In this document: one piece after another, positions 2,200 through 50,585 of the stretch | Layout of the letters: each line of letters opens with the position of its first letter | Position numbering within the stretch: the first letter of the stretch is position 1 | Source: Okamejei kenojei | Lineage: Eukaryota | Reading direction: 5' to 3' | DNA length: 64,000 bases | Assembly: GCA_035221665.1 (NCBI GenBank) | Contig: CM069145.1 | Coordinates: forward strand, 13,516,001 to 13,580,000 | The notes under the pieces: generated by a model | Databases searched by the model: none | What the model saw: the letters and a program-made list of their open reading frames with translations, nothing else | Told to the model about the DNA's origin: nothing | Program-made: the position numbers and the translations under genes

Positions 2200-3950
2200 G
2201 TTCAAACATCATTCTCAACATTAATGAGAACCATGAAGGTCCAGTTTGGGCCACCAAAGCGCCCCTGGCAGCATCCTGCTACATTTTCATCAGACACTGC
2301 CCTATCAGACAAAAATGAGGAACATAAAAGAACATCTTTCCTCATGTAATTTAGCGAAATGCATCCACCGCTCCTGCTCTCAGTTTTCTCATGAGAACAT
2401 TTGAGAGATCGGTGATTTAATCTGAATACAACCAGATTAATGGTAAGTAATCCATATTACTGAAAATGTTTTTCCCCTGATTTGTTGTCTGCGACAACAT
2501 TGTCTCTTCCTTAGAGATAAACAGCTGAACTAAAACATTTTTAGAATATGCCACATCTGGTTACCCAGATAATCACTTGATAATGATCTTACTTGACTCA
2601 TGTGATTGATATATGCCACAGCCATGTTATTGTTCACCTGATATGACATGCACACTTTCATAATAGAACAATAGGCATTTAATCCATAAAAAGCTCCTGA
2701 TACTCCAATAATTAATACAAATGTTTGGAGAAAATTTCTTAGGACAATCCATTTGCAATTCCCTGGTGTTATTGTCCGTAGTCCCCTAAACAAGGGACAT
2801 ATCAAATATTAACTTGATAAGAATAGATATTATTCTTATCTTAACCCAAATAATCACAGAAGCTATCCATCATCCGATAATACTTGCTTCAGCTTGCAAC
2901 GGCTGCTAAGCTTATATATTTCAAGCAGCTTGTGGAACCTTTTCTTTCCACCACTTTAATTCTGATAACGTATCCTTTGGTATTTGCATAGGCCTGTCAA
3001 AAAGGCCTGCATACTCTTATAATGCTTGTGTTTCCCTTTTTTGGAGCTTTTTTACTCTTTTACCTAAGCTCCTTCTCTGATGGAGGGACAAAGTTTGTCA
3101 ACAAAGCAATGAGACATTTGTATCTCGGAAAACATTTTTCCCCCTCATATGGTGCTGAATTACTCCTAAACCCTGAATAGTAATTTAGGAATGTTTATGA
3201 ATGCCTAAACATAGTTTTTATTGGATGGGTCAAGACCCTTGCCTCTCAACAGGCTTGTAATTGCTGCACTAATTTGCAGCTGACTCCTGATCAACCTTCC
3301 AATTTAAAATGTGATCAAGATAAACCATGACCATGTCCTCATTAGTGCAAGTGCTGATCTTCTTATCAGTGCAATTGTTGTTCCAGTAATTATGTGAACA
3401 GCCTAGAACTGAATTTAATCCATTAGACAATGTCTTAACTTGCACGGCTGACCCATTCTAATTAATTCAAGCACCTGTAAATATGATAATAAATTGGTAC
3501 TAAATACCAATCCTTCGAGTCTTATAGTAATGATTAACAATTTGTTAATAACAACTGTTTTTCAATGTTGAAGATGTCCATTTTAATAAAATGTTTTTAC
3601 ACTGTAAAAGTGTATTTAAAATGATGTCTTGTATGGCTTTACCACCACATCTTCTTTTCCCTGGGGAAATTTATGATACAAATTACGTACCTCTTCTTTA
3701 TTGGAGATATTTTGGGTGTAAACCTAAAATCAAGTTTTAGGTTTTCCTATATAGGTGAACCAATTCCTTCTACAATTTTTTTTGTAGATCCTTTACACAT
3801 TAAAATAAACCAACCCTTTGTTATGCCATATCATTGATCATAACACACCTGTAATCTCCCACAATTGGAGATTTCATCAACTTCTTCTGTAACAAGTTTT
3901 TGCACCTCTTCAAATGTACATGAAGCCTTTCCTTCCCAATCATATGGGTT
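2200..3950 (-). pseudogene. DIRS pol remnant (RT - RNase H - methyltransferase-like)
   Basis: RT: PRLFT...MVYLDHIL near 3300-3405. RNase H: ORF 2530-2805 (VNNNMAVAYINHMSQVRSLSSDYLGNQMWH). MT-like: FRLNHR and FYVPHFCLIGQCL, comparable to FASRLN and FYAFPPFCLIG, near 2230-2440. Confidence 0.82.
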
Positions 3951-4214
3951 CACATAAGGCTGTGTTGGATAAATATTTATTTATCATATTTCTGCCATTT
4001 TGATCCATTATCAAATCTTTACATCGGATCATAATTTTTCCAAAGTTTAATGACCAATATTTCCTTTGTAATCAATGTCTTTGATTTATCCCGAGGCAGG
4101 TTTACTCCATAATAATCAGGAGTTTAACATAACTTGATCTGTTTTGACCTGCAAATCTAAAGTGCAAAATTGGTCCCAATAACAATTATAATTATAATTA
4201 CTTGATCCTAATTT

Positions 4215-4368
4215 CTTGATCCTGAGCTGTGGCTTCCCCTCTATCTTTGTTAACAAAGCCCTTGACCACCTTTCATCCGTTTCTTATGCATTTGCTTTCA
4301 CTCCCACTCCTCCAGGACACAGATAAGGTTAGAGTTCTGCTGGACTCGCCTTCCATCATTTTTTTTGC
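4215..4368 (+). repeat. About 150-bp near-identical copy of 4573-4728, located inside the DIRS element
   Basis: ttcttgatcctga(g/a)ctgtggcttcccctc...ccatcattttttttgc is present twice; ORFs 4229 and 4589 share their first 47 aa. Confidence 0.95.
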
Positions 4369-4426
4369 CGATCAAACGCCAGGCGGGGCTTCTTCACGTA
4401 GTCACTCACGTGATTCCGAAGTAAAA

Positions 4427-4825
4427 TGAACCTTATGAACTACCACATCTATCTCAACTCCTCTGTGTCACACCCTGCCTCCGGCAAGGACTCTGTTCCA
4501 CTCTCCCAGTTCATCCATCTGTATTGTATTTGCTGCAACAAGACTTTCTGTACAAGTGCCTCTGAAGTGTTTTTCTTGATCCTGAACTGTGGCTTCCCCT
4601 CTATCTTTGTTAACAAAGCCCTTGACCACCTTTCATCCGTTTCTTATGCATTTGCTTTCACTCCCACTCCTCCAGGACACAGATAAGGTTAGAGTTCTGC
4701 TGGACTCGCCTTCCATCATTTTTTTTGCAAGAAATCTCACCACTTTTCCTCTTCACTCCCTTCAGTATTTTGCACGGACCGTTTGTAACTTCCCTGTCCA
4801 CTCTTCCATTCCCACAAATCACACC
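4427..4825 (+). mobile_element. Old Penelope-like element, RT thumb fragment (middle piece)
   Basis: HIYLNSSVSHPASGKDSVPLSQFIHLYCIC resembles the PLE motif HSYLDYTSSHPxSCKDSIPYSQFLRLRRIC. Confidence 0.8.
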
Positions 4826-4829
4826 ACTT

Positions 4830-5795
4830 TAGACTTTGGCCGTACACCAGCACTATCCTACACACTAGGGACAATTGACAATTTACAGCAGCCAATTAAC
4901 CTACAAACCTGCATGTCTTTGGAATGTGGGAGGAACCTGGAGCACACAGAGAAAATCACAGGGGGAATGTACAAACTTGGTACAGACAGGCACCCATAGT
5001 CAGGATCAGAATCAGAATCAGATTCACACTTTATTCGGCAAGTATGTTTTGCAACATACGAGGAATTTCATTGGCCAGGTCAGTCATACAACTAGAAGTA
5101 ACAGATCACTTCAAAAACACATTTTAACATGAACATCCATCACAGTGACTCCTACACATTCCTCACTGCGATGGAAGGTGAAATAAAGTTCAAGTCCTTC
5201 CCCTTAGTTCTTCCTCGGTCGTGGGCCTTGAGTCTCCATTGACGGGATGATCTTAACTCCCGTAGCCGGCGGCGTTTGGGCCCTCCGCGTCAAGGCGATC
5301 TGCTCCTGCATCGGGGGGGGGGGGGGGGGCGATGTCAGCTCCCACGTGCTGGACGATCAAACCTCGTGTCGGGGCTGGTGAACCTTCAGCGACGTTGGAG
5401 CTCCCGACTCGGCCTCACCCGAGACTGTGAGCCCTTGATGTTCATTCCACGGTGGTCGCGGTGGGAGCGATCCTAGGCAAGGGATCCGCTCCGATGTTAA
5501 GTCCGCGCGCCGTGGTGGGGCTCACCACAGACCAAGGAGGCTTCCAGCTCCATCGATGGTAGGCTGCAGAGCCCGGAGAATGTGATCCGAAAATTGATCA
5601 CATCTCCGGGTAGGTAAGAACATGAAAAAAAGTTTCCCCCGATCCCCTCTCCCCTCCACCCACATAAAACAAACCGAAGAACATTAAAACAAAACTTTTA
5701 ACAAACTAAAAATCTCCCCGGCGCCCCTGGTGGTCGATCCCGTGTCTCTGGCGCTGCGAAGCAGCAAATCTACCGTTGAACCACCGTGCCGACCC
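4830..5795 (-). mobile_element. HE1/V-SINE-like tRNA-derived SINE split by an insertion at about 5006-5734
   Basis: 4830-5005 and 5735-5795 join into the reverse complement of the SINE at 11254-11547 (gccaattaacctacaaac...gtgggaggaa...cagtcaggatc | gatcccgtgtctctggcgctg...ccaccgtgcc). Confidence 0.8.
5006..5734 (-). mobile_element. Non-coding GC-rich retroposon with Rex1-like 3' tail and (TTCTGA)n end
   Basis: Begins on + with agaatcagaatcaga..tttattcggcaagtat..catacgaggaattt, similar to the reverse complement of the Rex1 3' end at 29638-29671. CpG-rich body, no recognisable ORF. Confidence 0.55.
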
Positions 5796-5799
5796 TTAA

Positions 5800-6215
5800 C
5801 TGTGCTGCCATTGCAAGATATTTTCTCTTGCAATGGCAGGCTATGCAACTCTTGTACGTTGACCTCTTTCCTTTGCACCATTCAGGGACCTAAAGAGTCT
5901 TTCCAGGCAAAGCAGTGAATCACTTCCAATTCTTCCCATGTAACATATTGCATAGTTCACACTGTGGTCCCTCTACAGTGGCGAAACCAAATGCTCTGCA
6001 GGGCATCCACGTTTAGACCACATTGGTGACACTGCCTCTCGCTGTCGGCCTCTTTAATTCACCATCCCACTCCTACTCCGGCCTATCTGACCTATTAGTC
6101 TGTGGCCTCCTGAACTGTTACAATGAGGCTCAAAACAGAACAGCTCATCATCTTCCATCTGGCCTTCCTGCAGCTTTCTGGACACATTATTGAATTTTAC
6201 AATTTTAGGTAGCTT
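5800..6215 (+). mobile_element. Old Penelope-like element, Cys linker and GIY-YIG endonuclease remnant (right piece)
   Basis: FSCNGRLCNSCTLTSFLCTIQGPKESFQAKQ followed by YCI..CG..YxGETK-like sequence. The Cys-rich linker is characteristic of Neptune-type PLEs. Confidence 0.8.
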
Positions 6216-6304
6216 CATCTCCCTTGATTGTAACTGTTATCCATTTGTGAGATTGGCTTAGCTTTTCCAGTATCCCCTTTTTATATCCTAACAAAGAAGA
6301 CAAA

Positions 6305-6545
6305 GTGGAATTTCTTTAGTCAGAAGGCGGTGATCTGTGGAATTCATTGCCACAAAAGGCTGTGGAGGACATCAATTGATATTTTTAAGGTGGAGAATGA
6401 CAAATTCTTGATTCGTAAGGATGTCTGGGGTTATGGGGAGAAGGCAGGAGAATGGGGTTGAGAGGGAAAGATAGATCAGACATGATTGAATGGTGGAGTA
6501 GATTTGATGGGTCAAATGGCCTAATTCTGCTCCTAGAACATTTGA
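6305..6545 (+). mobile_element. CR1-clade LINE 3' end
   Basis: Encodes a FFSQxVVxLWNSLP..FKxExDKFL-like ORF2 C-terminus, followed by the gatgggtcaaatggcctaattctgctcct 3' stem-loop. Confidence 0.75.
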
Positions 6546-6586
6546 ACATTTTCCTCTCTGCGAGTGGAGTACACACTAAACGTGAC

Positions 6587-6880
6587 CTTTAGTTTAGTTT
6601 AGAGATACAGTGTGGAAACAGGCCCTACGGCCCACTGAGTACGCGCTGACCAGTGATCCCCACGCATTAACACTACCCAACACACACTTGGGATAATCTT
6701 ACATTTTATACTGAGCTAATTAACCTACAAACCTCTACGTCTTTGCAGTGTGCGAGGAAACCGAAAATCTCGGAGAAAACCCACACAGGTCACATGGAGA
6801 ACGTACAAACTACATACACAGACAGCACAGGTAGTCAGTATCGAACCGGGGTCTCTGGCACTGTAAGGCAGTAGCTTATG
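6587..6880 (-). mobile_element. HE1/V-SINE-like SINE
   Basis: (tttag)n tail, ggaaacaggccc, central V-like domain, and B-box complement atcgaacc at about 6840. Confidence 0.85.
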
Positions 6881-7141
6881 GCTACCCACTGAGCACATTT
6901 TCCTGCTCTGAATTTTGCATCTCCTACATTATTTTATCAATGTTCTTATTCTCTCACTGTTCCTGTTGACACATTGACCAGATAGCCTTGTTTACAGCTG
7001 ATCTCCATGGTCACCCTGTTTTGGAAATTGTCAACCTGGAAAGAATGGTGTCTTGCAAAGAAAACAGTTTCAGGGAAAAAATAATTCCATGCAACCTCCC
7101 TGCAGTAATCAGGCACCAACGTCTCTTATGGACATGGTCTG

Positions 7142-7548
7142 GAGCAACACCGCAAGCTGGAGGAACAGCACCTCATATTCCGTTTGGGGAGTCTGCATCC
7201 TTTGGGCTTGAATATTGAATTTTCTCAATTCTGTTAACCCTTGCTGTCTCCTCCCCTTCCCACCTCTCCCTCAGCCCTCGGGCCCTGGCATTCCCTCTAT
7301 CTCTATCTCTCCCCCACCCTAGTCGCACCAGCTTCTCATTTTCACACCACAAACAGCTTACAATGGCTTGTTCCCTTTATCACCGATACTTTTTTGCATA
7401 TCTTTCACTCATTGTTCCTTATCTCTCCACATCACCGTCTATATCTCTCGTTTCCCTGATCCCTGACCAGTCTGAAGAAGGGTCTCGACCCGAAACGTCG
7501 CCTATCTCCTTCGCTCCTTAGATGCTGCTGCACCCGCTGAGTTTCTCC

Positions 7549-7586
<38 letters not shown>

Positions 7587-7593
7587 TGTACCC
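7142..7593 (+). mobile_element. Young 5'-truncated Penelope-like insertion with 20-bp TSD
   Basis: tctcttatggacatggtctg at 7122-7141 and 7594-7613. The body closely matches 25772-26186. The site is empty in the second copy (about 59695-59720). Confidence 0.92.
7472..7499 (+). ncRNA. Minimal type I hammerhead ribozyme motif (PLE-associated)
   Basis: CTGAAGA (C3-A9), an extra A, helix II GGGT/CTCG/ACCC, GAAA, then CGTC (vestigial palindromic helix III, GUC cleavage triplet). Helix I is weak. Confidence 0.65.
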
Positions 7594-7974
7594 TCTCTTA
7601 TGGACATGGTCTGTAGTTTCACCGCTGGTAAAATTAACAGATAATTTTAGTAATGTTTAGTCTGCTGATTTTACTTATTCATCATCAAAGATTTTATATT
7701 TGACCTTCCCATTTCCCTCAATATTTGGGGGAAAAAAAATCACTTCCTGTCTGAATACACAGTTACTGAATCGCTTTAAATGAGCTGAGACTGGACTGGA
7801 GCAATGGTAAAGGTATGCTAAATAAAGCAAATAAAAAATTGGAAACTTGAAATAAAAACAAAAAATGGGAGCAAGAAACAGAATTAAATGCCATCAAGCT
7901 AAAATGTTCATTTTCTTTCTTTCTTTCCATATGCTGCCTGACCTGATGAGTGGTTCCAGCATTTTCAGTTTAAT

Positions 7975-8178
7975 AGAGTCTCAGAAATATGCTCTTTGGC
8001 CCAAGTCGTCCATGCCAACCAAGGTGTCTTCCTGAGCTAGTCCCATTTATCTGCATTTGGCCCATTCCCTCAAAACCTTTCCCATCCATGAGCCTGTCCA
8101 AATGTCTTTTAAACATTGTAACTATACCCGCGTCCACCAATTCCTTTGGCAGCTGATTCCACATGCCCATCACCTTCT
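7975..8178 (-). mobile_element. CR1-clade LINE 3' end
   Basis: ORF 7970-8173 (MWNQLPKELVDAGIVTMFKRHLDRLMD) matches the CR1 ORF2 C-terminus. Confidence 0.8.
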
Positions 8179-8229
8179 ATGTTTTATGAAGGTTTTGGAG
8201 GGTTTGTCTCCACCGAGTTAGTACATTTA

Positions 8230-8651
8230 AGGGGCTGTCCCACTTGGGCGACCTAATTGGCGAGTTTAGAAGAGTTTGAAAAAATGTCATGTTGAAGACT
8301 ATGTAGAAGACCTCCTTCGACCTCCCTTCGACTATGATGAAGACTATCTACGACTACCTTCGACTACCCTCGATTACCTACGACTAACATGCCGACCTAC
8401 TCCGACTAAACCCACGAGAAAAGAAAGTATCGATTTCTTCCATGGCGACATTTTTTTACTCGCAGGCATTTGTCAACGTTGGAAAATACGCCGCGACCTA
8501 GCTGAGGCCTCGAGTACGCGGGGACCACTCTCGAGCATGAAGGAGAGTTACAAAGACCTCCTGGGACCTCGTTTCGACTATGCTGTGAGTATGAGTCGAG
8601 GGCAAAGTCTCCAGAACTTGCGGATTAGGTCGCCCAAGTGGGACAGCCCCT
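8230..8651. mobile_element. PIF/Harbinger-type MITE
   Basis: Perfect 28-bp TIR AGGGGCTGTCCCACTTGGGCGACCTAAT (8230-8257 / 8624-8651) with TTA on both flanks (3-bp TWA TSD). Internal (cgacta)-like repeats. Confidence 0.88.
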
Positions 8652-9499
8652 TTACTAAAATAAATTACCTAAAATGCTGCTTTGTGCCCCTATTTTGGAA
8701 TTAATTTGGGGAACCCTTTGCAAAGGGTGAAAGGAGCATCCGTTAATTGCAAGACAAAATTTCTCTATGCATTTTGGGGGCTTTTGACTTTACTGCTTCC
8801 CCCTTCACCGTTATATTTATGATTATAAAAATTTCTTCCAACAAGGAAAATAAATCTTCTCATCTTCCTCACGGGGATGCCAAAGCAGCTTTCTTCATGG
8901 GTTATCCAGGAGGCAGCAAGCTGTCAGAAGAAAACATTGAATGCTTTAAAACATTTGGAGCCAAGTAAAAACTGGTTAATACTTAATGTAGGTCAGATAA
9001 ACATTGCAACTTAACCTCGTGATTTAGTGGAAGATGTAAAGGAACCCTTGCACAAGAAGTCATTTTAGACTGTGGTGCTCAGAGAAAAGAATAATTCCAT
9101 TGCAATTACTGAGTGAATGGGCAGAGGCCCAACGTGAAGCATTGCACTGGAAACCAGTGCAGTTCTCTGCATGTCATGTAGAAACTTCAAATGATTTTTC
9201 ATTTGAATTGACTGCAGTCAACATTACCAGATCAGTCCATCCCCTCAGGCATCCTGCAAGTGTTATTCACTGCTATTTTCATCAAAGCATCCATCGTGAA
9301 TTAAAACAGAAATTACTGGCTGATGTTAGGAGCTTTTCTATTTTGACTGTTAATTATGCAATAATAATAACTCTCTATTTTTGGGTATTGAAATTACAAT
9401 ACTTGCATAATACCAGTTGAGTTCAACTGTTCTAATAGTGTGTAAAGTTGTACCTTATGGCAACGCACATGTACAATTTAATAGATCTTCCTATATATG

Positions 9500-9790
9500 G
9501 ACAATAGACAATAAACAATAGGTGCAGGAGTAGGCCATTTGGCCCTTTGAGCCAGCACCGCCATTCAATGTGATCATGGCTGATCATCCACATTCAGTAC
9601 CCCATTCCTGCCTTCTCACCATATCCCCTGACTGCTATCTTTAAGAGCTCTATCTAACTCTCTCTTGAAAGCATCCAGAAAATTAGCCTCCACTGCCTTC
9701 TGAGGCAGAGAATTCCACAGATTCACAACTCTCTGGGTAAAAAGGTTTTTCCTCATCTCCGTTCTAAATGGCCAACGCCTTATTCTTAAA
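9500..9790 (-). mobile_element. CR1-clade LINE 3' end with (TATTGTC)n tail
   Basis: gacaatagacaataaacaataggtgcaggagtaggccatt... is reverse-complement homologous to 6305-6545. Confidence 0.8.
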
Positions 9791-10241
9791 CATTACCCCT
9801 CAACAGACGTAAAAATAAGATGGATCCCACTCATTGCTTGCAATTAAAACTGTTGCTGAGAAGTTATGGTAAGTCAAAGAAAGAGCAAGGCTTGTACCTA
9901 GACCTGATTGAAAGGTCATGGTCTTGTTTAGCATTTTGAGTGTGAATTGGCCTTCTGGAGGAGCAAGGTAACAGCCTGCTCACCTGCCCTTATTTATGGC
10001 CCTGCATGTTTGCGATATCCAAATATTCTCTTGCTTTTTGAATTTACTTGCTAAATAACAAATGTTGCAGAATTATATTACTAATTCCAAATGTAAATGT
10101 TATGTTTCATGTATCATGAGCCCATCTATTCTTCTGCAAATTAACTCATGGCTTACCATCCTTGTTTACTCTCATGCAGAGTGTGTCATTCCATAAATAT
10201 GTTTCTTCTTAATGGACAGTCCCTTGGGATCATGTGTAGTA

Positions 10242-10488
10242 AGCAACTGCAGGTTCTGGTTTACACCAAAGATAGATGCAAAATGCTGGAGTAACTCAGC
10301 GGGTCAGGTAGCATCACCGGAGAAAAGGAATAGGTGACATTTCGAGTCAAGACCCTTCTTCAGACTCGAATGGTGGTGCTACGGACACATGAACTCTGAA
10401 GAAGGGACTCGATTAGAAACATCACCATTCTTTTACTCCAGAGATGCTGCCTGGCCCACTGAGTTATTCCAGCATTTTGTGTCTACCC
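10242..10488. mobile_element. Inverted pair of Penelope-derived hammerhead modules
   Basis: Arms 10270-10365 and 10394-10488 are reverse complements. Cores at 10336-10363 (-) and 10396-10423 (+). Confidence 0.75.
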
Positions 10489-10829
10489 TTGGGATCATGA
10501 ATGGCTTACACCCTCTTCTACTAATAAGGTCAATATGGAAATTGCATAAAGTGCCAGAGGTGTGGTCTTGGTGGCTAACAGGATGGGAGGCTAGGTGGGC
10601 TATTCGTGTGGTGGTCTACTGACATCTAGACTCAAGGTTCTCAATACCATTCTGAAAGCTCCTACAGCAGTCATGAACCAGAAATTCTCAGGTGTCAGTA
10701 CATTTTTTCAAGGAGCTTTGAGCACCTCCTTGAAACTTTCTCTCTGTCCATCGAATAGTCTCTTCCCATGACAGCGCTTGAATTTCCATTTCCAGGTCCA
10801 GGGTCAGACATTCGTATAAAGCTGGAACA

Positions 10830-11100
10830 CATGAAACTGCAGATGCTGGCTTAAAAAATAGACACAAAGAGCGGCAGTAATTCAGCATATCAGGAACGTC
10901 TCTGAAGAACATGGATAGGTGACATTTCCAAACAGGAACCTTCTTCAGACCGATTGGAATAGTGGGGGAGAAAGCTGGAAGAGAGGTGAGTGCAAGACAA
11001 AGTCTGGCAAATGATAGATGGGTACAGGTGAGTGGGGTTTCCAAACGGTAGGTGGTTAGACAAAGGCCAGAGACGAAAAGCCATAAGGATAAAAAGACAT
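10830..11100 (-). mobile_element. Penelope-derived short repeat with degenerate hammerhead core
   Basis: aactgcagatgctgg...gacacaaa...ggtgacatttcc..ccttcttcagac; same module as 10242-10365. Confidence 0.65.
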
Positions 11101-11253
11101 CTGAACAAAGTGGCCTTCTCACCATATCCACACCACCTGGAGTGTAACTAGGGCTTCAGTATTGGTGCATATGCTTGTAAAATTTACTTCAAATTTAATT
11201 AGACAGCAAAGTCACGTTGACCTTTACAATCGAATTAATGCTTATGTCCCATC

Positions 11254-11547
11254 GGCATGGCACGGTGGTGCAGCTGTAAAGTTGCTGCCTTACAGACCCG
11301 GGTTCGATTCTGTATGGAGTTTGTACTTTCTCCCTGTGACCTGTGTGAGTTTTCGCCAAGATCTTCGGCTTCCTCCCACACTCCAAAGACGTACAGGTTG
11401 GCAGGTTAATTGGCTTGGGATAAATGTAAAATTGTCCCTAGTGTGTGTAGGATAGTGTTAATGTGCGGGGATCGCCGGTGGGTGCAGCCTTTGTGGGCCG
11501 AATGGCCTGTTTCCGCGCTGTATCTTTAAACAAAACTAAGCTAAAAA
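11254..11547 (+). mobile_element. HE1/V-SINE-like tRNA-derived SINE
   Basis: A-box-like ggtggtgcagctg, B-box ggttcgattc, central domain (ggagtttgtactttctccc...ttcctcccacactccaaagacgt), CR1-like tail gggccgaatggcctgtttcc and a (taaac)-type end. Confidence 0.88.
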
Positions 11548-14375: not shown

Positions 14376-14728
14376 AACGCCTGTCCCACTGTGGCGACCT
14401 TTCAGCGACTGTCTTCGACCTTCAAGCTCGAGGGCACTCGCCTGAAAAACCTCGAGCTGGATCGACCGTCAGTGATGAAACCGCAAGCTGGATTGACTAA
14501 CTGCTTATACACACACACACATCGCAAAGGCGGGGAACAATGAAAGCGGGGGAGCGCTGTCTGAATTCACGCCCGCAATGAACAGAAAGGTAAAAGACGG
14601 CTGCACAGTGTACGGTAAGTCCTTTAGAGCGCGGAGGTGGGGGGGGGGGGGGGGGGGGGGAAGAGAGAAGGGGGGGGGGGGGGGGGGAGAGAAGGGGGGG
14701 GAGAGAGAAGTGGGTGGGGAGAGAAACA
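14376..14728 (+). mobile_element. Probable Harbinger-type MITE fragment (one end)
   Basis: cctgtcccactgtggcgacct resembles the TIR of the MITE at 8230. No partner TIR found. Confidence 0.45.
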
Positions 14729-14729
14729 A

Positions 14730-15822
14730 GCTCTGAGGAAATGCAGCTGTAATTGCACATAAAGAAGGCGTATACATGGCAGCAGTCACAATTTTTGTAG
14801 TTGTTTTGGACTTGCATACTCTAGAATAATGTCCCTTCTTGCCACAACTATTACAAGTTGCCTCTCGAGCAGGGCATATCTCTCTCATGAATATTACCCC
14901 CGCAAAAATAACAGTTCCTTTTTGAATAATTATATGCTGCAGCAAGGGCACCTTTATCCGTAGAGATTGTTTCAGCTTGCTCCATATTTGTACTTGGGTG
15001 AAATTTGTTTGTAGTAATTGCAGCAGAATACACATTAGATGAGCCATAAGCATCTGAATTTTTCTGAGCCAAGTCCAAAGAGTAAGCTTGATTGTAAGCT
15101 GACTGTAAATCCAAGGTTTTGTGTTCTAATAGTCTGTCGTATTAAAGGCGATGCCAAACCATTGATAAAAGAGTCTCGAATAACTTCCTGTCGATATTGA
15201 TCAGCCGTAACTGCTTTGAAGGCACAGTCTTTACTAAGTCTTTGAAGTTCTTGTAAAAATTCATCAAGTGACTCACCAGGTTTTTGTTTCTGAGTAGCAA
15301 GGAGGTGTCGAGCGAATATCACGTGGGTGTCTTAACGAAGAGTCTGCTTAGTACATCAATAGCAGAATCATAAGTTGTACATTCCTCTATGTACTCGTAT
15401 ACATCAGAAGAGACGAAGCTTATTAATGTCTTAAGCCTGTCTGGTGCATCGTTGCCACACTGCTCAAAGATGTTATTTAGTATACGAAGCCAGTGCTTCC
15501 AATTCTTTGCAGCAGCAGGTGAGTTGGGATCCAGATCCAAGCGTTGGGGTTTCAATAGTTTCTCCATCCCAAGTCGGACAGTTTGACTTGTAAGATAAGT
15601 TGCTTAAATTGTTGTGAGGTAAATGAAACTTTCACTACTTGTAATTTACTTAACTTTATTTAAGCTTTAAGCAACTTATTTCTTTAATACATTACTCAGA
15701 AACGTCTGGCAAGCATGGCTGATTCCGCAGGCCTTTCCCGCCCGAAATACTTTGCACATGCGCACACTCCGGGAATGTCCTGCGCATGCGCACACTCTAG
15801 AAGAACCCTGCACATGCGCACA
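14730..15822 (-). mobile_element. Ty3/Gypsy LTR retrotransposon fragment: 5' LTR (about 15610-15822) and frameshifted gag
   Basis: ORFs 15319-15567, 15035-15322, 14851-15114 and 14505-15053 join into a gag (WKHW...RHLLATQKQKPGESLDEFLQELQRLSKDC...IRDSFINGL) with two zinc knuckles (CYFCGGNIH..C; CNSCGKKGHYSRVC). The LTR ends ...CAACA at 15610 and has AATAAA at 15655-15660 (-). Confidence 0.85.
15781..15792. promoter_or_regulatory. NRF1-type palindrome TGCGCATGCGCA in the LTR, with two near-copies at about 15753 and 15809
   Basis: Exact match to the NRF1 consensus. Function not shown. Confidence 0.35.
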
Positions 15823-16367
15823 TTTCAGTCCATGATCCCCCACCTCACCTGATTCCACACACCAGCTCCTCTTGCACCTCTTTATACTGGCTATCTTTAC
15901 ACTCTCAGTCCTGCTGCTGGGTCTCAACCTGAAAAGTTGACCAGCAAATTGTCTTCACTAGTGCTGCTTAACCTGCCGAGTTCCTCCAGCAGTTTGTCGT
16001 TTGCCCCAGATTCCAACATCAGCAATCTCTTGTGGCTCTGATTCTTTGTCCCCCATTAACCAGCAAGACTAATCCTTCATCTTTATTATTTTTGCTTTTC
16101 TGTAGATATTATACTCATATTTTGAATCCATTCCTGACAATCCATTATTTATCCACTTATAATGTGTATTATTGAGCATGTATTATTTATATATCTATTA
16201 CTCAGGCTTGGCTACATGTCATACCTTCCAAGCCAAATTTATATCAGCAACATACTCAGTGTACTTTCACTCTATTCGTCTACATTAAGAACAGTTATCG
16301 GGCCACAGACATTATTCCAACATCTTGCTTTGACATTTAACTTGCAGCTTCCTTTTCTTTTGTGTGC

Positions 16368-16722
16368 GGGAAGGAACTGCAGATGCTGGTTTACACTGAA
16401 GATAGACAGCAGGACTGGAGGAGAGAGATAGATCTAGATAGATAGGTAGATAGATACCTTCTATAACTATATATTAAGGGTCACAACCCGAAACATCACC
16501 CTTTCTTTCTCTCTAGAGATGCTGCCTATCCCGCTGAGTTACTCCAGCATTTTGTGTCTATCTTTGATTTAAACCAGCATCGGCAGTTCCTTCCTACATT
16601 AGATACAGTCGATAGATGGATAAATAAACAGGAGTAACTCAGCGGGACAGGCAGCATCTCCATTCCTTCTCTCCAGAGATGCTGCCTGTCCCTCTGAGTT
16701 ACTGCAACATTTTGTGTCTATC
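16368..16722. mobile_element. Cluster of rearranged Penelope-derived terminal modules with a (GATA)n tract
   Basis: Alternating orientations of aaggaactgcagatgctgg / gatgctgcct..ctgagttactccagcattttgtgtcta. Partial core aagggtcacaacccgaaacatc at about 16476-16497. Confidence 0.65.
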
Positions 16723-18959: not shown

Positions 18960-19521
18960 TTCCTATCACAGCGTGTGGGGAGTCTAGCCACGGGTAAAGT
19001 TGCGGGGAGGGCAGGAGCGTTGAGAAGGAGGGGGTCGGGGATCATGCCAGTAACCCACTCACTCACCGCTGCCGCGGCGCTCTGGGCGTGGAGCCACAGC
19101 ATTGTGGCCGGGGAGGGAAGCAGCACGCGTGGCTACGAGCTGCCGCCATCACTGGACAGCAGAACCGACTGCCATCTCAGCGCCTTCTGCCGGCCCGCTC
19201 ACCTCTGGCAGTGCTCTCCGTCTGAACAGTGAGGGGACCAGCTCAAGAGCAAAGTTCATAGAGCGGAGTGGGTCAGCGGGTGATGGATAACATCACAGCA
19301 GGCGGTGGAGCTTACTCCTGTGTCAGCGTAATCAAGCGACCAATTGAGGTTTCTCGCCCTGACATATGGAGTAAGCTCTACCGCTCACTGTCCTGTTATC
19401 CATCGCCCACAGACCCGCTCGAGCTGGAAGCTGGCATGATCCCCGACCCCCTCCTTCTCAACACTCCTGCCCTCCCCGCAACTTTACCCCTGGCCAGACT
19501 ACCCACATGCTGTGAAAGGAA
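18960..19521. repeat. About 90-bp inverted repeat (18960-19050 / 19431-19521), foldback-like element
   Basis: gggtaaagttgcggggagggcaggagcgttgagaaggagggggtcggggatcatgccag pairs with ctggcatgatccccgaccccctccttctcaacactcctgccctccccgcaactttaccc. A second inner IR lies at 19304-19318 / 19368-19382. Confidence 0.85.
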
Positions 19522-20669
19522 TTGTCCTTTTACAGCCGTTTCCCACTTTACAGCCGCTTCCCATCAGCTGTTAGCAATGAGGGATAGACTTGGCAATCCC
19601 TCAGTACAGCAACATTGTTCTTGATGTTGCTGTACTGAGGGATAACAAAGTCTATCTTTCTTGGCGAACAACCTAACCTTCAGCCTCCAAGATCCAGGTA
19701 CATTTTTTAGCAATGTTACAAAATTTTGAGATTAAAAAAATCAAGTCTGCAATTTATCCCATCAGATAAAGTATTAAAAAAAGTTTAATTTGACACTTAA
19801 TTCACTTTCATATCTTCAGTATTAAAAATGTTATGGCCATTTTCATACTCGGAAATTAGCTTCTTGTTCCCTATTGCTTTTCCATTGACAACACAAAAGC
19901 TGTGATCGAGGACGGTCAAAAGCCCATCACTTTCTTAAAAATTAAGAGAACAATGAAAGGTTCCGTTATTGTAGATTGAAGCATTCTGAAACAAATATAA
20001 AACATCTTACTTGGGTGACCTGAAATTAAAGCATATAATTAGTTAATTACCTAATTGTAACTAATTACAAAATTGACCATTGTGACGGAAATAGTAATAA
20101 ACACCCAGATTGCCTTGAAAATTCAAAAATGTGATATACTCAAGATCAGAACTTTAATATTATTATATTATATGCTGTTAATCCATAACAGATAGGTAAA
20201 TAAATTACAATCTCTAGCAATAGACCAGGTCTTTATGGAGAAGATCAGTTACTAACTGGTACATTGGCATATCATAATCAGTAGCATCATCATACTCCTC
20301 AGATTGTAACCAATAAGCAAATCTGTACACTTTGTTTTTCCTCAACTTTTCAATTTTGGCATTGTAAACTACAAGTTTTTGCTCTTCAAACCACGCATGA
20401 CATGCCTTTCTGCCCACTACTTTCCCATTAAGAATGTCCTGTAGATTCAATTTCTTAAGAAAAGGATAATTTTTAAAAATAGCCTAAGTATCCAAATAAC
20501 AAACTAATCCCATTCACACAAGAATATAACATGATTTTTTAATCTCACTGTCATGAATTTATATGCCAGATCAGTGATGGAAATGGGCTTTGGGAACAAG
20601 GGGTACGCTAAGGTCCGTGAGGCTGAGGTTGGGAAGGAAGGGGGTGGGGGTGTAGACTCTGAAATTGAA

Positions 20670-20875
20670 GATAGACAAATGCTGGAGTAGCTCAGCAGGA
20701 CAGGCAGCGCAGCGACTCTCCAGAGAAGACCCTTCTTCAGACTGAACTGAACTCTCGTCGGTGAGAGTACTTGTGATTGTCTGAAGAAGGGTCTTGACCA
20801 GAAACGCAACCCTCTCCCCAGAGCCCCTGCCCGTCCCGCTGAGCCACCACGGACAGGGAGTTGAAGGTAGACACA
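20670..20875. mobile_element. Inverted pair of Penelope-derived hammerhead modules
   Basis: gacccttcttcagact (20728-20743) and tctgaagaagggtcttgaccagaaacg (20780-20806), with flanking arms in inverted orientation. Confidence 0.65.
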
Positions 20876-21587
20876 GGTGGAGGTCCACCTTCAACTTCAG
20901 AGCCAAACAAAAAACACAGAGTGCTGGAGGAACTCAGCGGGCAAGGCAGCACCCGCGGAGGGAACATATCATTTATTTTCGCGAGCATTTCTAAACGTAG
21001 TTTCCAGTGACCGTTTGACGAAGTAACTAGCAGTGGCAGTAATACACAACGCACCATGTCTGAGGCAGGGTGTCCAACAGCGGAGGTAATGTTCACCGAA
21101 AACATTTATTATAAACGTGGAAACAACATACAAGGAAGGGTCCAAGGGTCACTCGGCCGAATAACGCTAGGCTACAGATAGACACAAAAAGCTGGAGTAA
21201 CTCAACGGGACAGACAGCATCCCCGGAGTGAAGGAATGGACAACGCTGGGCTACTGCAGCTTTCGGCCTGGTGACTGTTATTAATATTGACCTCGGTCAA
21301 AAAAGCTGAAACAGGGCAGGTGACATATTTTAACTTACTTTAAAATATCCCGTATTGCACTGCACCACGTGCGGACATGGTTCCATGTATCACAGAGAGA
21401 CAAAACCACTGGAGATTTTATTATTATTTATTATTGAGTCTTGTGCTAATATTTCTAATAACATAACAAATACAAGAAATGTATGCCAAGGCAAGCCCAT
21501 TGCGGCAGCCCATTGTTCGAACACTTACGGCAACTGTCAAATGCACCACTCTCCTTCAACTAGCACCCTGCCTCAACAGTCTATTTT

Positions 21588-34510: not shown

Positions 34511-36163
34511 CAGTGCCCTCCATGATGTTTGGGACAAAGACCCATCATTTAATTTATTTGCCTCTGTGCTCCACAATGTGAGATTTGTAATAGAAAAAAA
34601 AAGTAAAAAGTGCACATTGTCAGATTTTAATAAAGCCATTTCATACATTTTGGTTTTCACCATACAGAAATTACCAGCAGCGTTTATATACATACCCCCC
34701 CCCCCCCATGCACCATAATGTTTGGGACACAGCACTGTCATGTGAATGAAAGTAGCCATGTATTAGTAGTTTTGTTGCTTACCCTTTGCATGCAAATGAC
34801 TGTTTGAAGTCTGCGATTCATGGACAACACTCACCTGTTGCAGGGTAGCTTCTCTGGTGATGCATTGCCAGGCCTGTATTACAGTTTATGCTTGTTTTGG
34901 GGTAGTACTCTTCAGTTTTCTTTCAGCATATAAAAGGCATGCTCAATTTGGTTCAGATCGGTGATTGTCTTGGCCACACAAGAATTTGAACATTTTTTAG
35001 CTTTGAAAAACTCCTTTGTTGCTTTAAAAAGGGAGCGGTATGTTGGGATCATTGTCCATGCTGTAGAATGAACTGCCAGCCAATGAGTTTTGAGGCATTT
35101 GTTTGAACTTGAGCAGATGGAATCTGTCTATACCTTTCAAAATTCACTATGCTACTACCATCAGCAGTTGTATCAATCAATGAAGATAAGTGAGCCAGTA
35201 CCTTCAGCACCACACATGCCCAGCCATCAACACCACACACACAGGTAAAGTGGTATGCTTTGGAGCTTGGCAATTCTTTCTCTCCTGCCATCACTCTGAT
35301 ATGTTAATCGTCGTCTCATCTGCCCACAAGACCTTTTTCCAGAACTGTGGTTTTCACTTTAAGTACTTGGCAAACTGGAACCTGGGCATCCTATTTTTGT
35401 GCTAACCAGTGGTTTGCATCTTGCAGCGTAGCCTCTGTATTTCTGTTCATGAAGTCTTCTGCGGAAAGTGATCATTGACAAATCCACACCTGACTCCTGA
35501 AGAGTGTTTTCTGATCTGTCGGACAGGTGTTTTGGGATTTTTATTATTATAAGAGAATTCTTCTGCACAATCATCAGCTGTGGAGGTCTTCCTTGGGCTT
35601 GCCAGTCCATTTGCGATTTCCGTAAGCCCACCAGTGCGCTCTTTCTTCTTAATGATGTTTCAAACAGTTGATTTTGGTATGCCTAAGGTTTGGCTGATGT
35701 CTTGAACAGTTGTATTGTATTTCCTCAGTCTCATAATGGCTTATTTGACTTTCATTGGCACAACCTTGGTCCGTCAGATGTTGATAAACAGCAATAAAAG
35801 TTTCGCAAAGGTGAATGGGGAAAGACTGGAGGAAAGACTTGGTGCTGAGAGCTCTCTTATCCCTGCATTAAGAAGGCAATTAAACACACCTGAGCAATTA
35901 CAAACACATGTGAAGCCATGTGGTCCCAACCATTATGGTGCCCAGAAATGGGGGGGGTAGACTATGTATAAATAACACAGCTGGTCATTTCTACATGGTG
36001 AAACAAAAATGCATAAAAAATGACCTTTAATAAAATCTGACAATGCGCACTTCAATCTGACTCAACCACATGTGATTGTTTTTTCTCTATTACAAATCTT
36101 AAATTGTGGATACAAGAGGCAAATAAATATAGGTTTTTGTCCCAAACATTATGGAGGGCACTG
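34511..36163 (-). mobile_element. Tc1-like DNA transposon (IR/DR type) with degenerate transposase
   Basis: TIR CAGTGCCCTCCAT(G/A)ATGTTTGGGACAAA at both ends, TA flanks (34509-10 and 36164-65), inner direct repeats at about 34712 and 35922-35942. Transposase pieces LQESGVDLSMITFRRRLHEQKYRGYAARCKPL and LIGWQFILQH. Confidence 0.93.
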
Positions 36164-41970: not shown

Positions 41971-44514
41971 CCAGTCCTTACTTGGAATGATTGGCATTCC
42001 TTAGTTATTTTAGCAACTCCATCCCATAAATGCTGTATCAGTCACATAAGTACTGCAGCAGTTCACAACTTTTTGCTACCATCACCTTAAGAATCCTACT
42101 AAGGACTAGGCCCCCCCAAAAGCATGGGCTTTGTGGAGCAATTACACCACATCCCAGGAAAAAACCAAATGAAGATCGCAAATGCGGACAACCTTGCCTA
42201 ATTCTATTTAAAAAACACATCTTGAAAGAAGAGCATGAATATTGAACTAATAAATACTGGTGACAAGTAAGAAGCTTCCAAACCAACTTTTTACCATTAT
42301 GATAAGATTATGAATGACCATCAACCTCCAGTTGCCACTCTCACCACTCCATCCTATAGCTCTTTAGTATCCAAAAAATCTTCTAAACTTCATCCTGTAT
42401 ATTCTCAATAGCTGAGCATCTGGTTGTGAAATTCCAACGTTCATAAGGTACTCCGCATCTCTATTATAAATATGTTATTTCTTGTGTTGACACTATGACT
42501 TTATTTCCCAGATCCTCCGATAAAATGAAACTTCCCCATTTTTCTGGATAAGGATTTCTAGTATTTCTGCATGTGCTTTTCAACTATTACCAAAAAAGTG
42601 TTTTTCTGCAAAAGTCTGACATAGAACACACAACTGTTCTCAGATTTCAAAACACATATAACATTAACATATCTCACAGGTGTCGATAGTTTTGTTTAAT
42701 GCCAATACAATAAATGTAACAACAGCAACTGGTACCAATAACTAAACCATCTATTTAAGTAATTACATTTATTATCTTATCAACAATCACACTTACCAAC
42801 TGTTCTATGAACAAAAAAAGTGCATAATTAGGTTTGGTTCCATAACCTGTGATCATAAACTGTTCAAGGAAGCAAAGTAACAGTTTTCAACAAGGATGTA
42901 ATCACAACAGATGTAAACCATAGGAGATGTTAAAATAATATAATGAAGAGTATCAATATCAAGAATGTAAAGCATGATATATACACAGAAATTGGCAGTA
43001 AATATAAGCAGTTGTGATCTGGTAACAATAGTCATGGTCAGATTTTTTCAATGGAAGAACGACAATAAAATGGGACTGTGAGATGTTGCTTAGATAATAC
43101 TATTCAGTATCAGAATGAGTACCACAAGGACTTTGAAGATCACAGGTGTAATAGTTGAAAAGTTTCATCCCAAAAGCAAAAGCTTGCAAGAGAACTCATA
43201 CAATTACTCAAATTCTTAATTAAACCATTTATTCCATGCTATCTCATTTATGGAAATCTGCTCTGTTGCTCTGGGTTCGTCTCTTCCCCCACCAACTCTT
43301 CCCTCCTTGTCATACAAAGAATTCCACTTGCAATAGGGCTAAGAATATCTTCCCTAGCAATCTGTGAATCTTCGATTTCATTTGCAAGGTTGATTACAGT
43401 TTTCCACATCACATTTAATTATGAACAGATGTCATATATATTAAGTTTGTAACAATACTTTCAATAAATGTTTGTACATTTATAGATTCCTAGGATCTGA
43501 CGGAATCAATAGCCTTTGCTCACAAAGATCGCTAATGATCGCCATAATCACTAATTTGCAATTTTTAGTGCTTAATTAACAATCAGTAGCCAGATTAATG
43601 TGCGACAATTATCTGTTCATTGTCGCATGCAAGTTGCTTCTGGGGTTGTATCACACATGGTGAATGATCAATATTTATATTTGTCCATTACCCACCCCTA
43701 CCCCTCAAAAATCTACAACATGCGCATGTATAGTTACAAAATTGGCATATAATAAATCAGAAATAAATTGTAAAACATATTTTTACAAATAATATGTCAT
43801 GTACTTGTGGCATCTGATAGATGTGACTAATGACCTTTAGAATATTAAGAATCTTTAGCTATGTACATATTAGGTAGTGCTAGTCAATTTAAATATCAGT
43901 CCTTATACCCCAGGGAATTAAATATAGGCACCTTTCCAACTATGAATACCACAGAAGGTAGACACAAAATGCTGGAGTAACACAGTGGTACAGGTCAGAA
44001 AAGTACAGCTACATTAAAAGAGTAGCATACTGAAGAGGGAGGCTACAAATGTCAAAAGTATAGTAATTTGAGACAGGACCAAGGGTTGGGCATATGAGAC
44101 TTTGATAATTATCTCTCTTCCTATGGAATAAATTTGGGTTCCTTCTAGTAGGTTCCTCCTTAAAAAAAACCAAAATTTTAATAACTGTAAATCCATTTTT
44201 GTTTTATAAATAAGAAACTCAAATATTTCATTTATTGACCACACGAAGAAAAAATCAAAATTACTTGGTCGTATTTGGCACAACATGTAATGAACCATCA
44301 GCTTTTGATGCCATCTGCTTAGAAGCAGCAAATTATCAGGTGTAGTCATAGGAACTTAAAATAAATTAGTTTTGTTTGGATGAAAAACCTTTTCTAGTAG
44401 TAAAACCAAAAATATTGCTAATTCTCAATTAAAACAAGAAAAATTTCAAAGTTAATGTTGACTAATAACTTGATAATTGCCAAAACCCATGTTCCAAGTA
44501 ATACGTATTCTTAC

Positions 44515-44683
44515 ATTTTGAATGCTTGTCGCACAGTGGCACCAGCCCGCATATCACAGAGTCTTATTGTTCCTTTACTACTACTGATAGGCAAACCCAG
44601 TTGCACTGATAGTATGACCATTCTGCTGCTGTAAATAACTTCTGTCATCTCTTCCATGTTGGCAGGTTTAATATCTACCATGT
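44515..44683 (-). CDS. PPP2R2D: B55-delta internal exon
   Basis: aag|..[40 protein letters not shown]|gtaag. Confidence 0.9.
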
Positions 44684-45684
44684 CTTTACAATTTGTTAAG
44701 ACAATTTTAAGAATTAACGTGGAAACAGTTGCATGTACATTTTACATGCTAAAATTGTATAATAAAATTTACCATAAAAATAAAAATCAGGCCCAAGTTA
44801 GAACAAAATGTAAGGAAGATAGAAGAGAATAAAATTACAAATTAAGATAACTATTGAACACGGTCCGATGTATCTAAATACAAGGATACAAAAAGAATTC
44901 ACAATTTTAAGTAAGGGAATCTCATCTTAAAGCACACTGTTTACCAATAATACACAACTAAAATTAAAATGCAAAAAAACAATGTCTGAGGAACTTCTTC
45001 AGAAGAAGGGTCCTCAACTCAAATACAAGTCTGTCCATTCCCTCCACGGTGCTGTACAGAACCGTGCTGGTTTTTCTCCAACCTTTGTTGTTTGTTCAAG
45101 CGTCGCATCCACCATCTGTAGTTTCCTGCATCCGCATGAATTTTGGACAATGGCATTTCTGAATATATATGGTACTAAGAATATATGGGCAGGAAAAATC
45201 TGTTTTACACATATTCCAAAAATAATCTGCACTTTAAATTGAGTTAACCTTCAGTAAAAACCCTAGCATTAACAAAAATCAATCTCATATTTTGTCCCTA
45301 TTTTCCATTTCCCTTACAAATTTTCTATGGTGTAAACTTCGGTCAAATTAAATCACTAGTGTAACAGGCAAATTCATCTGCATGCAATTTTCAACCATTC
45401 TGATTTTAAAAAAACAAACTTTTTTTAATTGTTGTTATTTATGTTGTATTTATTTGCTGAAAGAATCTAGTTTTGCTAACGTTAATTTGCCCACTGAGCT
45501 GGTCCTCTTTAAAAAAGGTCTAAACACTCAAATGGAAGCTGCTGTATTGGAACAAGTACTAATATTCCTTCAGCTGAAAAAAGTATTGGTTTTGGGTGTA
45601 ATAATATTTTATAGATACAAACAGGCATTACAAACATACATCATCAATATACTAGGAATAGAAACATTTTGAAAAATAGGATAC
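44684..45684 (-). other. PPP2R2D: U12-type (minor spliceosome) GT-AG intron
   Basis: Donor GTATCCT (45678-45684 on -). Branch-like TCTTAAC (44695-44701 on -) about 11 nt before the 3' splice site, with no polypyrimidine tract. Confidence 0.8.
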
Positions 45685-49029: not shown

Positions 49030-50585
49030 CACTGGCGCAGCAGTATAGTAGCTGCTCTATTCAAGAATCAAGAGGGTTTTATTGTCATATTCCCCGTAAT
49101 CTCCTCAGGAAGTAGAATCGCATATTACCTTCTTTAGAAATGCATCAGTGTTGCTGGAACCAGAAAGATCTTCCGGCAATCATTGCACTCCCAGGAATCC
49201 TTCCCCTACCAAAGTCCAACAATCAGTTCCATGGTTTTACTGAAGTTGAAGAGCCAGGTTGTTGTGCTGGCACCATTTGGTCAATCAGTCCGATCTCACT
49301 TTAGATATTGCTGCTACTCGTCACCATCTGTGATTTCGTCCAACAACGATTGTTGGTCGCGGCGAGTTCGCACTTATGTCCCCCGGCTACGGCAGTCATG
49401 GGTATAAGAGTAGTAAAGCAGGGGCAGAGTCCACGCAGACCTTGAGTGCTCCCATAAAACGGATTGTTGTTGAGATGAAGTGTTTCTGCCAATTCTGAAT
49501 AGACTGTGGTCTGTGGATAGGAAGGGTCGAGGATCCAATTGCAGAGGGATGCGCAGAGACCCAGTTCAGTGAGCTTGGTAACCAGCTTGAAGGGAATATG
49601 GATATCGAACACCGAGCTGTATTATAAACCAACAGCCTGACGTTTTTATTGTCCAAGTGTACTTTGCGGAGTGACAGCCAGTGAGACGCATCCTCTTTTG
49701 ACCTGTTGTGGCGGGCAGGCTAACTGTAGTTGGTCGAGGTTCTCGCCAAGTGGTAGGAGTGATATGCGCCAAACCAACCTCTCAAAGCACATCACCCACC
49801 ACAGACCATAGTGCCACTCACCCGATTTCATTTAGGCACGTCACCTTACTCTTCTTGGCACCAGTATTATGGATGCCCTCTTAAACAGGTGGGAACCTCA
49901 GAAGTGAAAGTTGAAAATTCCGCAAAAGCTCCCGCCCATTTGGTCTGCACAGGTTTTGGAACCTTCGACCGGGCTCGTCCAGGGAGTGATGCATCACTGA
50001 CTGTCGTTTAGCTAACCTTCTGATTTTGCCTTGTAGGAGGTGATGACATTCGAGCCTTGCCACAGTTGCCGAACATATCCCGCCTCAATCCTCCAGCTCA
50101 GAGGCAGAAGTCCCTTTTGGCCTTTTGGTGGCATAGGTCAAGGTCATAATCTGGACTTCATACGCCTCAGCTTCACCAGACCTGAATGCCCGAGATCTGG
50201 TTTTTCAGAAGTATGTGGATCTCATGATTCCTATCCAAGGCTTCTGGTGCTGTTTTGACAGACTACGTGCTGTTTGACAGACTACGGGTGCTGTTGGTAC
50301 AGAGTGAGGTTCTCAGAGATCTTTGATTTTCTCCCACTCTCCAAAGATGCACAGTTTTGTAGTAATTGGCTTGGTATAAGAGTAAATTTCCTTAGTGCGT
50401 GTGGGATAGTGGCCAATGTCTAGGATCGCTGGTCGCACGGTTTGCTCTAAAAAAGACGGTGTCAGTGTATTGGACACAGAATCTGTGAAGAACTTGTTTT
50501 AGTTTTTCCCTTCCCTGCATTTAGTCGGACTGCGCTGGCCGAGGGCTTTTCCTTTTTCCTACCCTGTAACTCTAAACTAAACTAC
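49030..50585 (+). mobile_element. HE1-like SINE split by an antisense Rex1-like LINE fragment (about 49060-50260)
   Basis: SINE head ggcgcagcag at about 49035 and body/tail at 50290-50585 ((taaac)n). The minus strand of the insert encodes LVTKLTELGLCASLCNWILD and DQLQ.A-type Rex1 RT pieces, with a (tcttga)n tail at about 49060. Confidence 0.65.

Follow-up and report, generated by a model that had tools for sequence, protein, structure and literature searches.

A minimal hammerhead ribozyme motif in the 3′ end of a Penelope-type insertion in the skate Okamejei kenojei

We analyzed a stretch of 64,000 nucleotides of Okamejei kenojei DNA (GenBank assembly GCA_035221665.1, contig CM069145.1, forward-strand positions 13,516,001 to 13,580,000), which we call the window and number from its first letter. 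It holds a short insertion, the focal copy of this study, within which a sequence-only reading had placed a hammerhead core. The insertion, its flanks and its empty counterpart are laid out as follows.

7122–7141, forward strand: left copy of the target-site duplication (TSD), 20 bp, identical at 20/20 positions to 7594–7613 (the best of 287 random controls scored 9)
7142–7593, forward strand: focal copy, a 5′-truncated Penelope-like insertion of 452 bp, absent from the duplicate locus
7142–7237, forward strand: last 31 codons and stop of an RT-endonuclease ORF, by tblastn
7238–7470, forward strand: pyrimidine-rich 3′ UTR with an AG one base before the core, splice-acceptor-like by sequence
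7470–7501, forward strand: minimal type I hammerhead motif, by sequence, descriptor scan and pair counts
7470–7471/7500–7501, forward strand: helix I, 2 bp
7472–7478, forward strand: CUGAAGA box
7479, forward strand: extra A after A9
7480–7483/7488–7491, forward strand: helix II, 4 bp, its G10.1–C11.1 pair being G7480–C7491
7492–7495, forward strand: GAAA box
7495–7498, forward strand: palindromic ACGU (15.2/16.2), without loop 3
after C7499, forward strand: cut predicted from sequence only
7521–7551, forward strand: conserved 3′ block, common to all subfamilies and upstream of both 3′ termini in a 27-fragment alignment
7552–7585, forward strand: T34 run, expanded from the T4 of other copies
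7594–7613, forward strand: right TSD copy, whose first 2 bases also match the element (microhomology)
59695–59715, forward strand: empty site, the target sequence in single copy in a duplicate of the locus, by pairwise alignment

Several other features lie elsewhere in the window. A Gypsy-like gag remnant with a weak zinc-knuckle match lies at 14505–15603 (−), a Tc1-type transposase remnant at 35359–35682 (−), and a U2 snRNA match, limited to the 5′ part, scoring under the gathering threshold and probably a pseudogene, at 2764–2866 (−). Long inverted repeats unrelated to the insertion, possibly MITE-like, occur at 19268–19418, 18954–19050/19431–19527, 19569–19670 and 21852–21954, and the fragments at 27203–29376 (+) and 49301–49719 (−) resemble what we take to be LINE reverse transcriptase remnants. 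One exon-like stretch of a PP2A B55 subunit was confirmed (E 8e-10); it departs from the human sequence mid-exon, perhaps through assembly errors. The other exon-like stretches on the minus strand, at about 38.9–47.1 kb, presumably belong to the same PP2A B55 regulatory subunit gene.

The insertion can be compared with its own empty site. The window's right end (54043–63994) duplicates 3142–11351 at about 80% identity, and the target sequence is present there once, without the insert. Differences between duplicate and original are dominated by insertions, and transitions make up only 14/80, 10/73 and 20/90 of the substitutions, as against 18/25 between two copies of the element; this excess of insertions and transversions disfavors an old segmental duplication. 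The pattern suggests instead that the duplicate likely represents this very locus, entered into the assembly as an unpolished long read; on that reading the insertion would be recent and present on only one of the two homologues (heterozygous). The T34 run might have been taken for a poly(A) tail, a reading we rejected given that the run is internal. The conserved 3′ block just upstream of it is likely part of the region recognized by the RT.

What the insertion derives from is indicated first by its coding remnant. In tblastn searches with full-length RT/GIY-YIG proteins, its 5′ end matched the C-termini of P0023 (residues 774–804 of 806, E 0.002) and P0013 (873–902 of 904, E 0.001), and the last 30 residues of full-length relatives align to 7133–7225. 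The focal copy is also 89% identical over 419 columns to 25772–26178, which forms part of a much longer element:

23287–26221, forward strand: decayed, near-full-length element of the same family, with a 9-bp TSD (p 0.01)
24.0–25.4 kb, forward strand: its RT, frameshifted, with thumb and linker missing
25514–25846, forward strand: its GIY-YIG remnant, a weak match (P0013 residues 805–899, E 0.006)
26116, forward strand: its dead core, with G12 changed to A
26187–26221, forward strand: its 35-nt tail

The RT core of the long element runs through shifting frames and includes the Penelope-type DKG motif (KPADKGG, near 24450). Five full-length relatives match 24.0–25.4 kb with tblastn E values of 1e-29 to 1e-43, and the best matches of the RT fragment are skate, stingray and shark proteins. 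GIY-YIG was found in all three full-length relatives scanned, in two of them above the cut-off; Pfam scans of window fragments (20, then 3) never named RT or GIY-YIG. The Penelope origin proposed in the sequence-only reading is thus supported, both by the ORF end in the focal copy and by a same-family element with RT and GIY-YIG remnants. A CX2-5CxxC linker between RT and EN, described as a mark of Neptune and Nematis (PMC8557442), is present in 112 of the 120 relatives listed and in a second remnant in the window, at 5823–5966. The element is endonuclease-bearing (EN+) and likely of the Neptune clade, a placement that we keep at likely because the linker region of the long copy is missing. 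The upstream pseudo-LTR, a partial tandem expected of an active copy, was not found at 23287–26221, which is a dead copy. The second remnant (4212–6215, +) is also decayed and Penelope-like; it represents another subfamily, retains the thumb region and a CX4CxxC linker, is interrupted by other repeats and, like the focal family, has a GT directly after the ORF end. A GIY-YIG remnant of a further Penelope copy lies at 30765–31021 (−).

The motif itself, CTGAAGA-A-helix II-GAAA-CGTC (28 nt), is found at 7472–7499 (+), letter for letter as it had first been read. It lies about 235 nt downstream of the Penelope ORF stop, in the pseudo-LTR, and the focal copy has all of the CUGANGA, GAAA and UH core, the extra base after A9, the G10.1–C11.1 pair and the palindromic 15.2–16.2. 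We searched the window with a structural descriptor requiring CUGANGA, 0–1 extra base, a helix II of 4–8 bp, GAAA, a self-complementary 15.2/16.2 and UH: the strict form matched only at 7472(+), and permitting G-U in helix III added one further match, at 10363(−). Could an ordinary repeat have matched the hammerhead consensus by accident? A loose pattern alone is weak, with 11 matches in the window against a chance mean of 4.36, a count that overlaps chance, and an Rfam scan at E≤10 returned 15 hits in the window, none of them to a hammerhead family. The descriptor, however, had no hit in any of 200 shuffled windows, and the pseudo-LTR position, the extra base, the G10.1–C11.1 pair and the palindrome are all reported features of Penelope ribozymes (PMC4209133). 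We therefore consider coincidence highly improbable, and refuted as far as sequence can refute it. The core at 7472–7499 is borne out, its description as a minimal type I motif fits the core boxes, extra base and palindromic helix III, and, judged by its letters, it is a genuine minimal hammerhead ribozyme motif within the 3′ end of a Penelope-type element. Pattern scans for relatives elsewhere gave no match in genome contigs, none in viral contigs and one in metagenome contigs; we judged the last (L001) to be a chance match, with 14 nt between the boxes, no matching helix II and unrelated flanks.

The ribozyme-bearing 3′ module is abundant. A profile built from 7 copies gave 28 hits at E≤1, 25 of them outside the duplicated right end (the reversed-sequence control gave 1 hit, E 0.5), and with 2 more added by eye there are 27 module fragments in about 52 kb of unique non-N sequence. 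The high copy number first proposed thus holds, at a density greater than the suggested one copy per 5 kb or so. Every one of the 11 other places that had been listed does contain a piece of this repeat, but several are not cores: 18–31(−) breaks off in helix II, 16476 has no CUGA, 21824–21852 is inverted inside the core, and 20728–20806 and 32780–32835 are junctions of head-to-head pairs. Sixteen of the 27 fragments touch the core and 11 span it. Among these 11, core and helices are both intact in one copy, or in two if G-U is allowed in helix III. Our alignment took in 13 of the 27 fragments, 10 of them core-spanning, and left out the copy at 12636 and 13 other partial fragments; all 11 core bases are kept in 4 of these 10 aligned copies, two of which also keep all four helix II pairs, and in the eleventh core-spanning copy (12636) helix II is broken. 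Most of the many copies are thus likely broken remnants unable to cut RNA, although assembly errors may add to the apparent decay. With 9–10 of the 11 core-spanning copies broken in core or helix, the picture of a large population of ribozyme-bearing copies is not supported. The suggestion of intronic copies fared somewhat better, in that two fragments do lie inside PP2A B55 introns, but neither has an intact core:

43945–45090: two module fragments between PP2A B55 subunit exons
about 43945–43994, reverse strand: fragment without core
about 44990–45090, forward strand: fragment with a decayed core, antisense to the gene

The ends of the fragments are informative about how they were made. In the reference copy there are two 3′ termini about 35 nt apart, both downstream of the predicted cut: the short one, where the focal copy also ends, at 26186–26188 (63–65 nt past the cut) and the long one at 26221 (98 nt past it). 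Assigned by eye, about 12 of the 27 fragments have the ~35-nt tail, about 10 end at the short site, 5 end earlier or unclearly, and none ends at the predicted cut. Within 26143–26210 and its homologues, a short 3′-block motif could pair with either of two stretches, each preceding one of the 3′ termini; the folds of five copies disagree as to which pairing forms. Many fragments form head-to-head pairs. The TSD score exceeded all 287 controls at 5 of the 15 insertions tested, and at 9 of the 15 was not clearly above chance. Four insertions illustrate the range:

10235–10485, both strands: head-to-head pair of short modules with a perfect 14-bp TSD, 10363(−) with the tail and 10396(+) without it
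16363–16721: four module fragments in both orientations, with a 15-bp TSD (14/15)
21176–21241, reverse strand: 66-bp solo module with a 13-bp TSD (12/13), ending at the short terminus
32737–32938: head-to-head pair of decayed modules with a 13-bp TSD (12/13)

The 5′ ends are less easily explained. In seven short copies the first base lies no more than about 5 nt from the 5′ edge of the core, and in three others it follows the predicted cut by 4 nt or less (both counts by eye and post hoc); the cleanest of these three is the solo module at 21176–21241, which starts at the base after the predicted cut and with 4 nt of microhomology to the target. Such clustering is not predicted by plain random truncation and counts against the explanation that we favor below. 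The starts at the core's 5′ edge favor an alternative view, in which the short modules form a non-autonomous family of their own (retrozyme-like or SINE-like): the ribozyme would release their RNA, which might then be circularized, and the Penelope protein would reinsert it. In the same direction, loose ends pile up before 26092 in public contigs (130 contigs of run X1 and 580 of run X16), and head-to-tail joints connect 26188 to 26092 (97 nt; at least 3 contigs, X16) and about 26130 to 26092 (39 nt; at least 9 contigs in X16 and at least 1 in X1, with further variants). A preprint also derives animal retrozymes from Penelope pseudo-LTRs, with some in one chondrichthyan (bioRxiv 10.64898/2026.07.22.740005). 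Against this, all seven copies that start at the core edge are arms of inverted pairs, and the module is absent from all 32 tandem-repeat rows of the window. The consensus of the loose ends is pyrimidine-rich with low agreement (0.37–0.38), as expected from the 3′ UTRs of other subfamilies, and the joints reach depths of about 10^2–10^3 against about 10^7 on the core in X16, values that are summed contig depths and not copy numbers. Units cut by the ribozyme should moreover begin and end at the cut, and the dispersed copies do not end there. We thus regard an independent family as improbable. The focal copy contains 31 ORF codons, and the fragments of ~100–130 bp are non-coding only through truncation; this ORF end and the lack of a tandem array in the window also speak against the sequence-only reading's population of non-coding, retrozyme-like retroposons.

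An extension of the same idea, which we put forward as a long shot, is that skates and rays carry a self-propagating mini-retrozyme of about 97 nt, running from the 5′ edge of the ribozyme to the first RT start, in which head-to-tail dimers would supply the second strand; in the parent element, the acceptor AG might let splicing switch helix I, as proposed for D. virilis. If that held, few vertebrate ribozyme retroposons would be smaller, and its copy number would be very high. Of the copies with long upstream sequence, all six have a pyrimidine tract before the core (0.69–0.85), and five have the AG. We found no GT–AG joint among the 15 joints and 12 between-letter rows listed from public contigs. 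One RNA-library contig (X5 record 19) crosses the predicted cut unspliced, although by itself it reveals neither the strand nor whether the RNA was truly transcribed. In a DNA-sized run, 25805 is joined to 26096 across a single letter (depth 566); in this form an internal deletion places the ORF end beside the core. An ORF start at the ATG in the 3′ block was rejected, the frame being closed in several copies (by eye).

How well the helices are kept bears on whether the motif is active. Across the 10 aligned copies the first two pairs of helix I form in 9 and the third in 3, so that the 2-bp helix I seen from the start in the focal copy is real but not peculiar to it, being family-wide. Because helix I stops at 2 bp there is no loop 1, and the canonical loop 1–loop 2 contacts of retrozyme hammerheads are absent. 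The palindrome is an intact ACGU in 2 of the 10 copies and AUGU in 3. In four monomer folds the probability of helix II was 0.003–0.024, so the hammerhead fold is predicted to be rare in the monomer, and a dimer folded in the hammerhead manner, but lacking helix I, is 7 kcal/mol less stable than the dimer minimum. RNAalifold predicted no consensus pairs from 13 copies. In the alignment, 76.7% of helix cells are paired and the covariation score is 0.286, values reached by 48 and 55 of 500 shuffles in a sample of only 13 decayed copies; the helix II covariation that had been proposed as a check is thus not above its shuffle control.

The core bases give a different picture. At non-CpG positions of the aligned copies, 9/100 core cells deviate from the majority, compared with 59/176 in the spacer after the cut (p 2e-6). 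The comparison is borderline against other non-CpG positions of the motif (22/119, p 0.052) and not significant against the 3′ block (40/256 cells, p 0.12), so the excess conservation proposed for the core is found relative to the spacer but not clearly relative to either of these. In 2 of 4 public-contig runs (X1 and X16), contig depth has one peak at the core bin and a second over the 3′ block, in the 26150–26177 bin that matches the focal 3′ block, and the majority letter at position 12 is G in public contigs. The low deviation relative to the spacer and these depth peaks together suggest that the core is held across subfamilies with differing neighbor sequence. Judged from these alignments, single copies decay although the core is kept across subfamilies.

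A further reading is that the motif is a relic that cleaves in no context and is kept for protein binding, as a splice acceptor or for its closeness to the RT start, or is unselected altogether. Every subfamily seen has a 2-bp helix I, none of the GT donors tried within the element (8 and 86) extends it past 3 bp, and the RNAalifold and covariation results above point the same way, as does the failure of 8 of 9 Xenopus dimers to cleave (bioRxiv 10.64898/2026.07.22.740005). On the other side, the focal copy has all diagnostic features of minimal hammerheads except the helix lengths, and it has the X1 majority letter at eight places where the 26-kb copy differs (25781, 25833, 25852, 25856, 25880, 26020, 26062 and 26116, the last being G12); it departs from that majority at 26130, 26131 and 26136, which reflect sister subfamilies. 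A 2-bp helix I is also found in the D. virilis element (PMC4209133), and the Anolis ribozyme cleaves once its protein is added (PMC11167929). Loss of all activity is thus a possible but somewhat doubtful reading; it bears solely on activity and does not conflict with the Penelope anatomy.

From the observed anatomy, the TSD, the empty site, the two 3′ termini, the inverted pairs inside one TSD and the decay of most cores, we conclude with good though not full confidence that the motif is a minimal hammerhead sequence in the pseudo-LTR forming the 3′ end of a Penelope-like retrotransposon, one that bears an endonuclease and likely belongs to the Neptune clade, and that the focal copy is a 5′-truncated insertion with a 20-bp TSD. 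By analogy with the Anolis element (PMC11167929), the element's protein would nick the target DNA with a stagger, and reverse transcription of uncut RNA would begin internally, from either of two positions past the ribozyme, and in most cases end early. The ribozyme would then be copied simply because it lies within the first ~130 nt to be reverse-transcribed, and priming from both nicked strands could give rise to the head-to-head pairs. The ribozyme itself would have little activity, and any that it has would require either dimerization through the ACGU palindrome or help from the protein of the element; selection would act on it in master elements only, leaving it as neutral cargo in dispersed copies. 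The mobilization by Penelope RT that the sequence-only reading had proposed agrees well with the 5′ truncation, TSDs, optional tail and inverted copies seen here: a 30–40 bp tail, 5′ truncation and inverted copies are among the described Penelope hallmarks (PMC8557442, PMC3846280).

The pairing of Penelope elements with minimal hammerheads is already known from other animals, and what we describe adds no new class to either RNAs or mobile elements; rather, it extends the known association to a skate or ray family. No paper dealing with hammerheads in the Penelope elements of skates or rays turned up in a literature search that covered subscription journals thinly (the supplements of PMC4209133 and of the 2026 preprint may list such motifs), and, with the same thin coverage, none on twin priming in Penelope. 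The excerpted text of PMC4209133 names fish, coelacanth, frog and reptiles as hosts, cartilaginous fish not being among those named there. The metazoan Penelope minimal hammerheads that it describes (Cervera and de la Peña, 2014) have the same core boxes, the extra base between 9 and 10.1, the G10.1–C11.1 pair, the same palindromic 15.2–16.2 without loop 3 and the same place in the pseudo-LTR, and they likewise occur as thousands of mostly solitary copies with some close pairs on opposite strands. The differences are in helix length: helix II is 4 bp here as opposed to 6–8 bp in its examples, and helix I is 2 bp as opposed to 4–5 bp, with 2 bp only in D. virilis, so that the family lies at or under the lower limit of the described lengths. 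As in our family, helix I of the D. virilis Penelope has 2 bp and an AG resembling a splice acceptor sits at its 5′ edge, but the D. virilis intron has been shown to be spliced, whereas here the likeness is one of sequence (PMC4209133, PMC2377424).

Metazoan non-LTR retrozymes (PMC7229834, bioRxiv 10.64898/2026.07.22.740005) share the type I hammerhead, the kinship with Penelope and TSDs of more than 4 bp. They are, however, non-coding head-to-tail repeats of 150–450 bp that are expressed as circles, whereas our copies stand alone or in head-to-head pairs, and ORF sequence is present in the focal copy. The closest mechanistic parallel is PAc, a Poseidon element of Anolis (Frangieh et al., 2024; PMC11167929), in which the ribozyme likewise lies upstream of two internal 3′ termini separated by the tail and whose copies come from uncut RNA, as we infer for the skate family; the relatives of our element carry the Neptune-type linker instead, and its termini lie 63–65 and 98 nt after the cut. 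In the Anolis element, insertion was unaffected when the ribozyme was mutated, cleavage depended on the protein, and RNA-seq gave no ends at the cut (PMC11167929), and the role of Penelope hammerheads has been described as an open question (PMC8557442). To the model of internal starts, the skate family adds clean genomic support: the target site is seen both with and without the insertion, the TSD is 20 bp long, the two termini are separated by 35 nt, and inverted pairs share a single TSD. As a very abundant and possibly still polymorphic family with a 2-bp helix I, it would also offer a handy test of whether cut RNA ever serves as a template.
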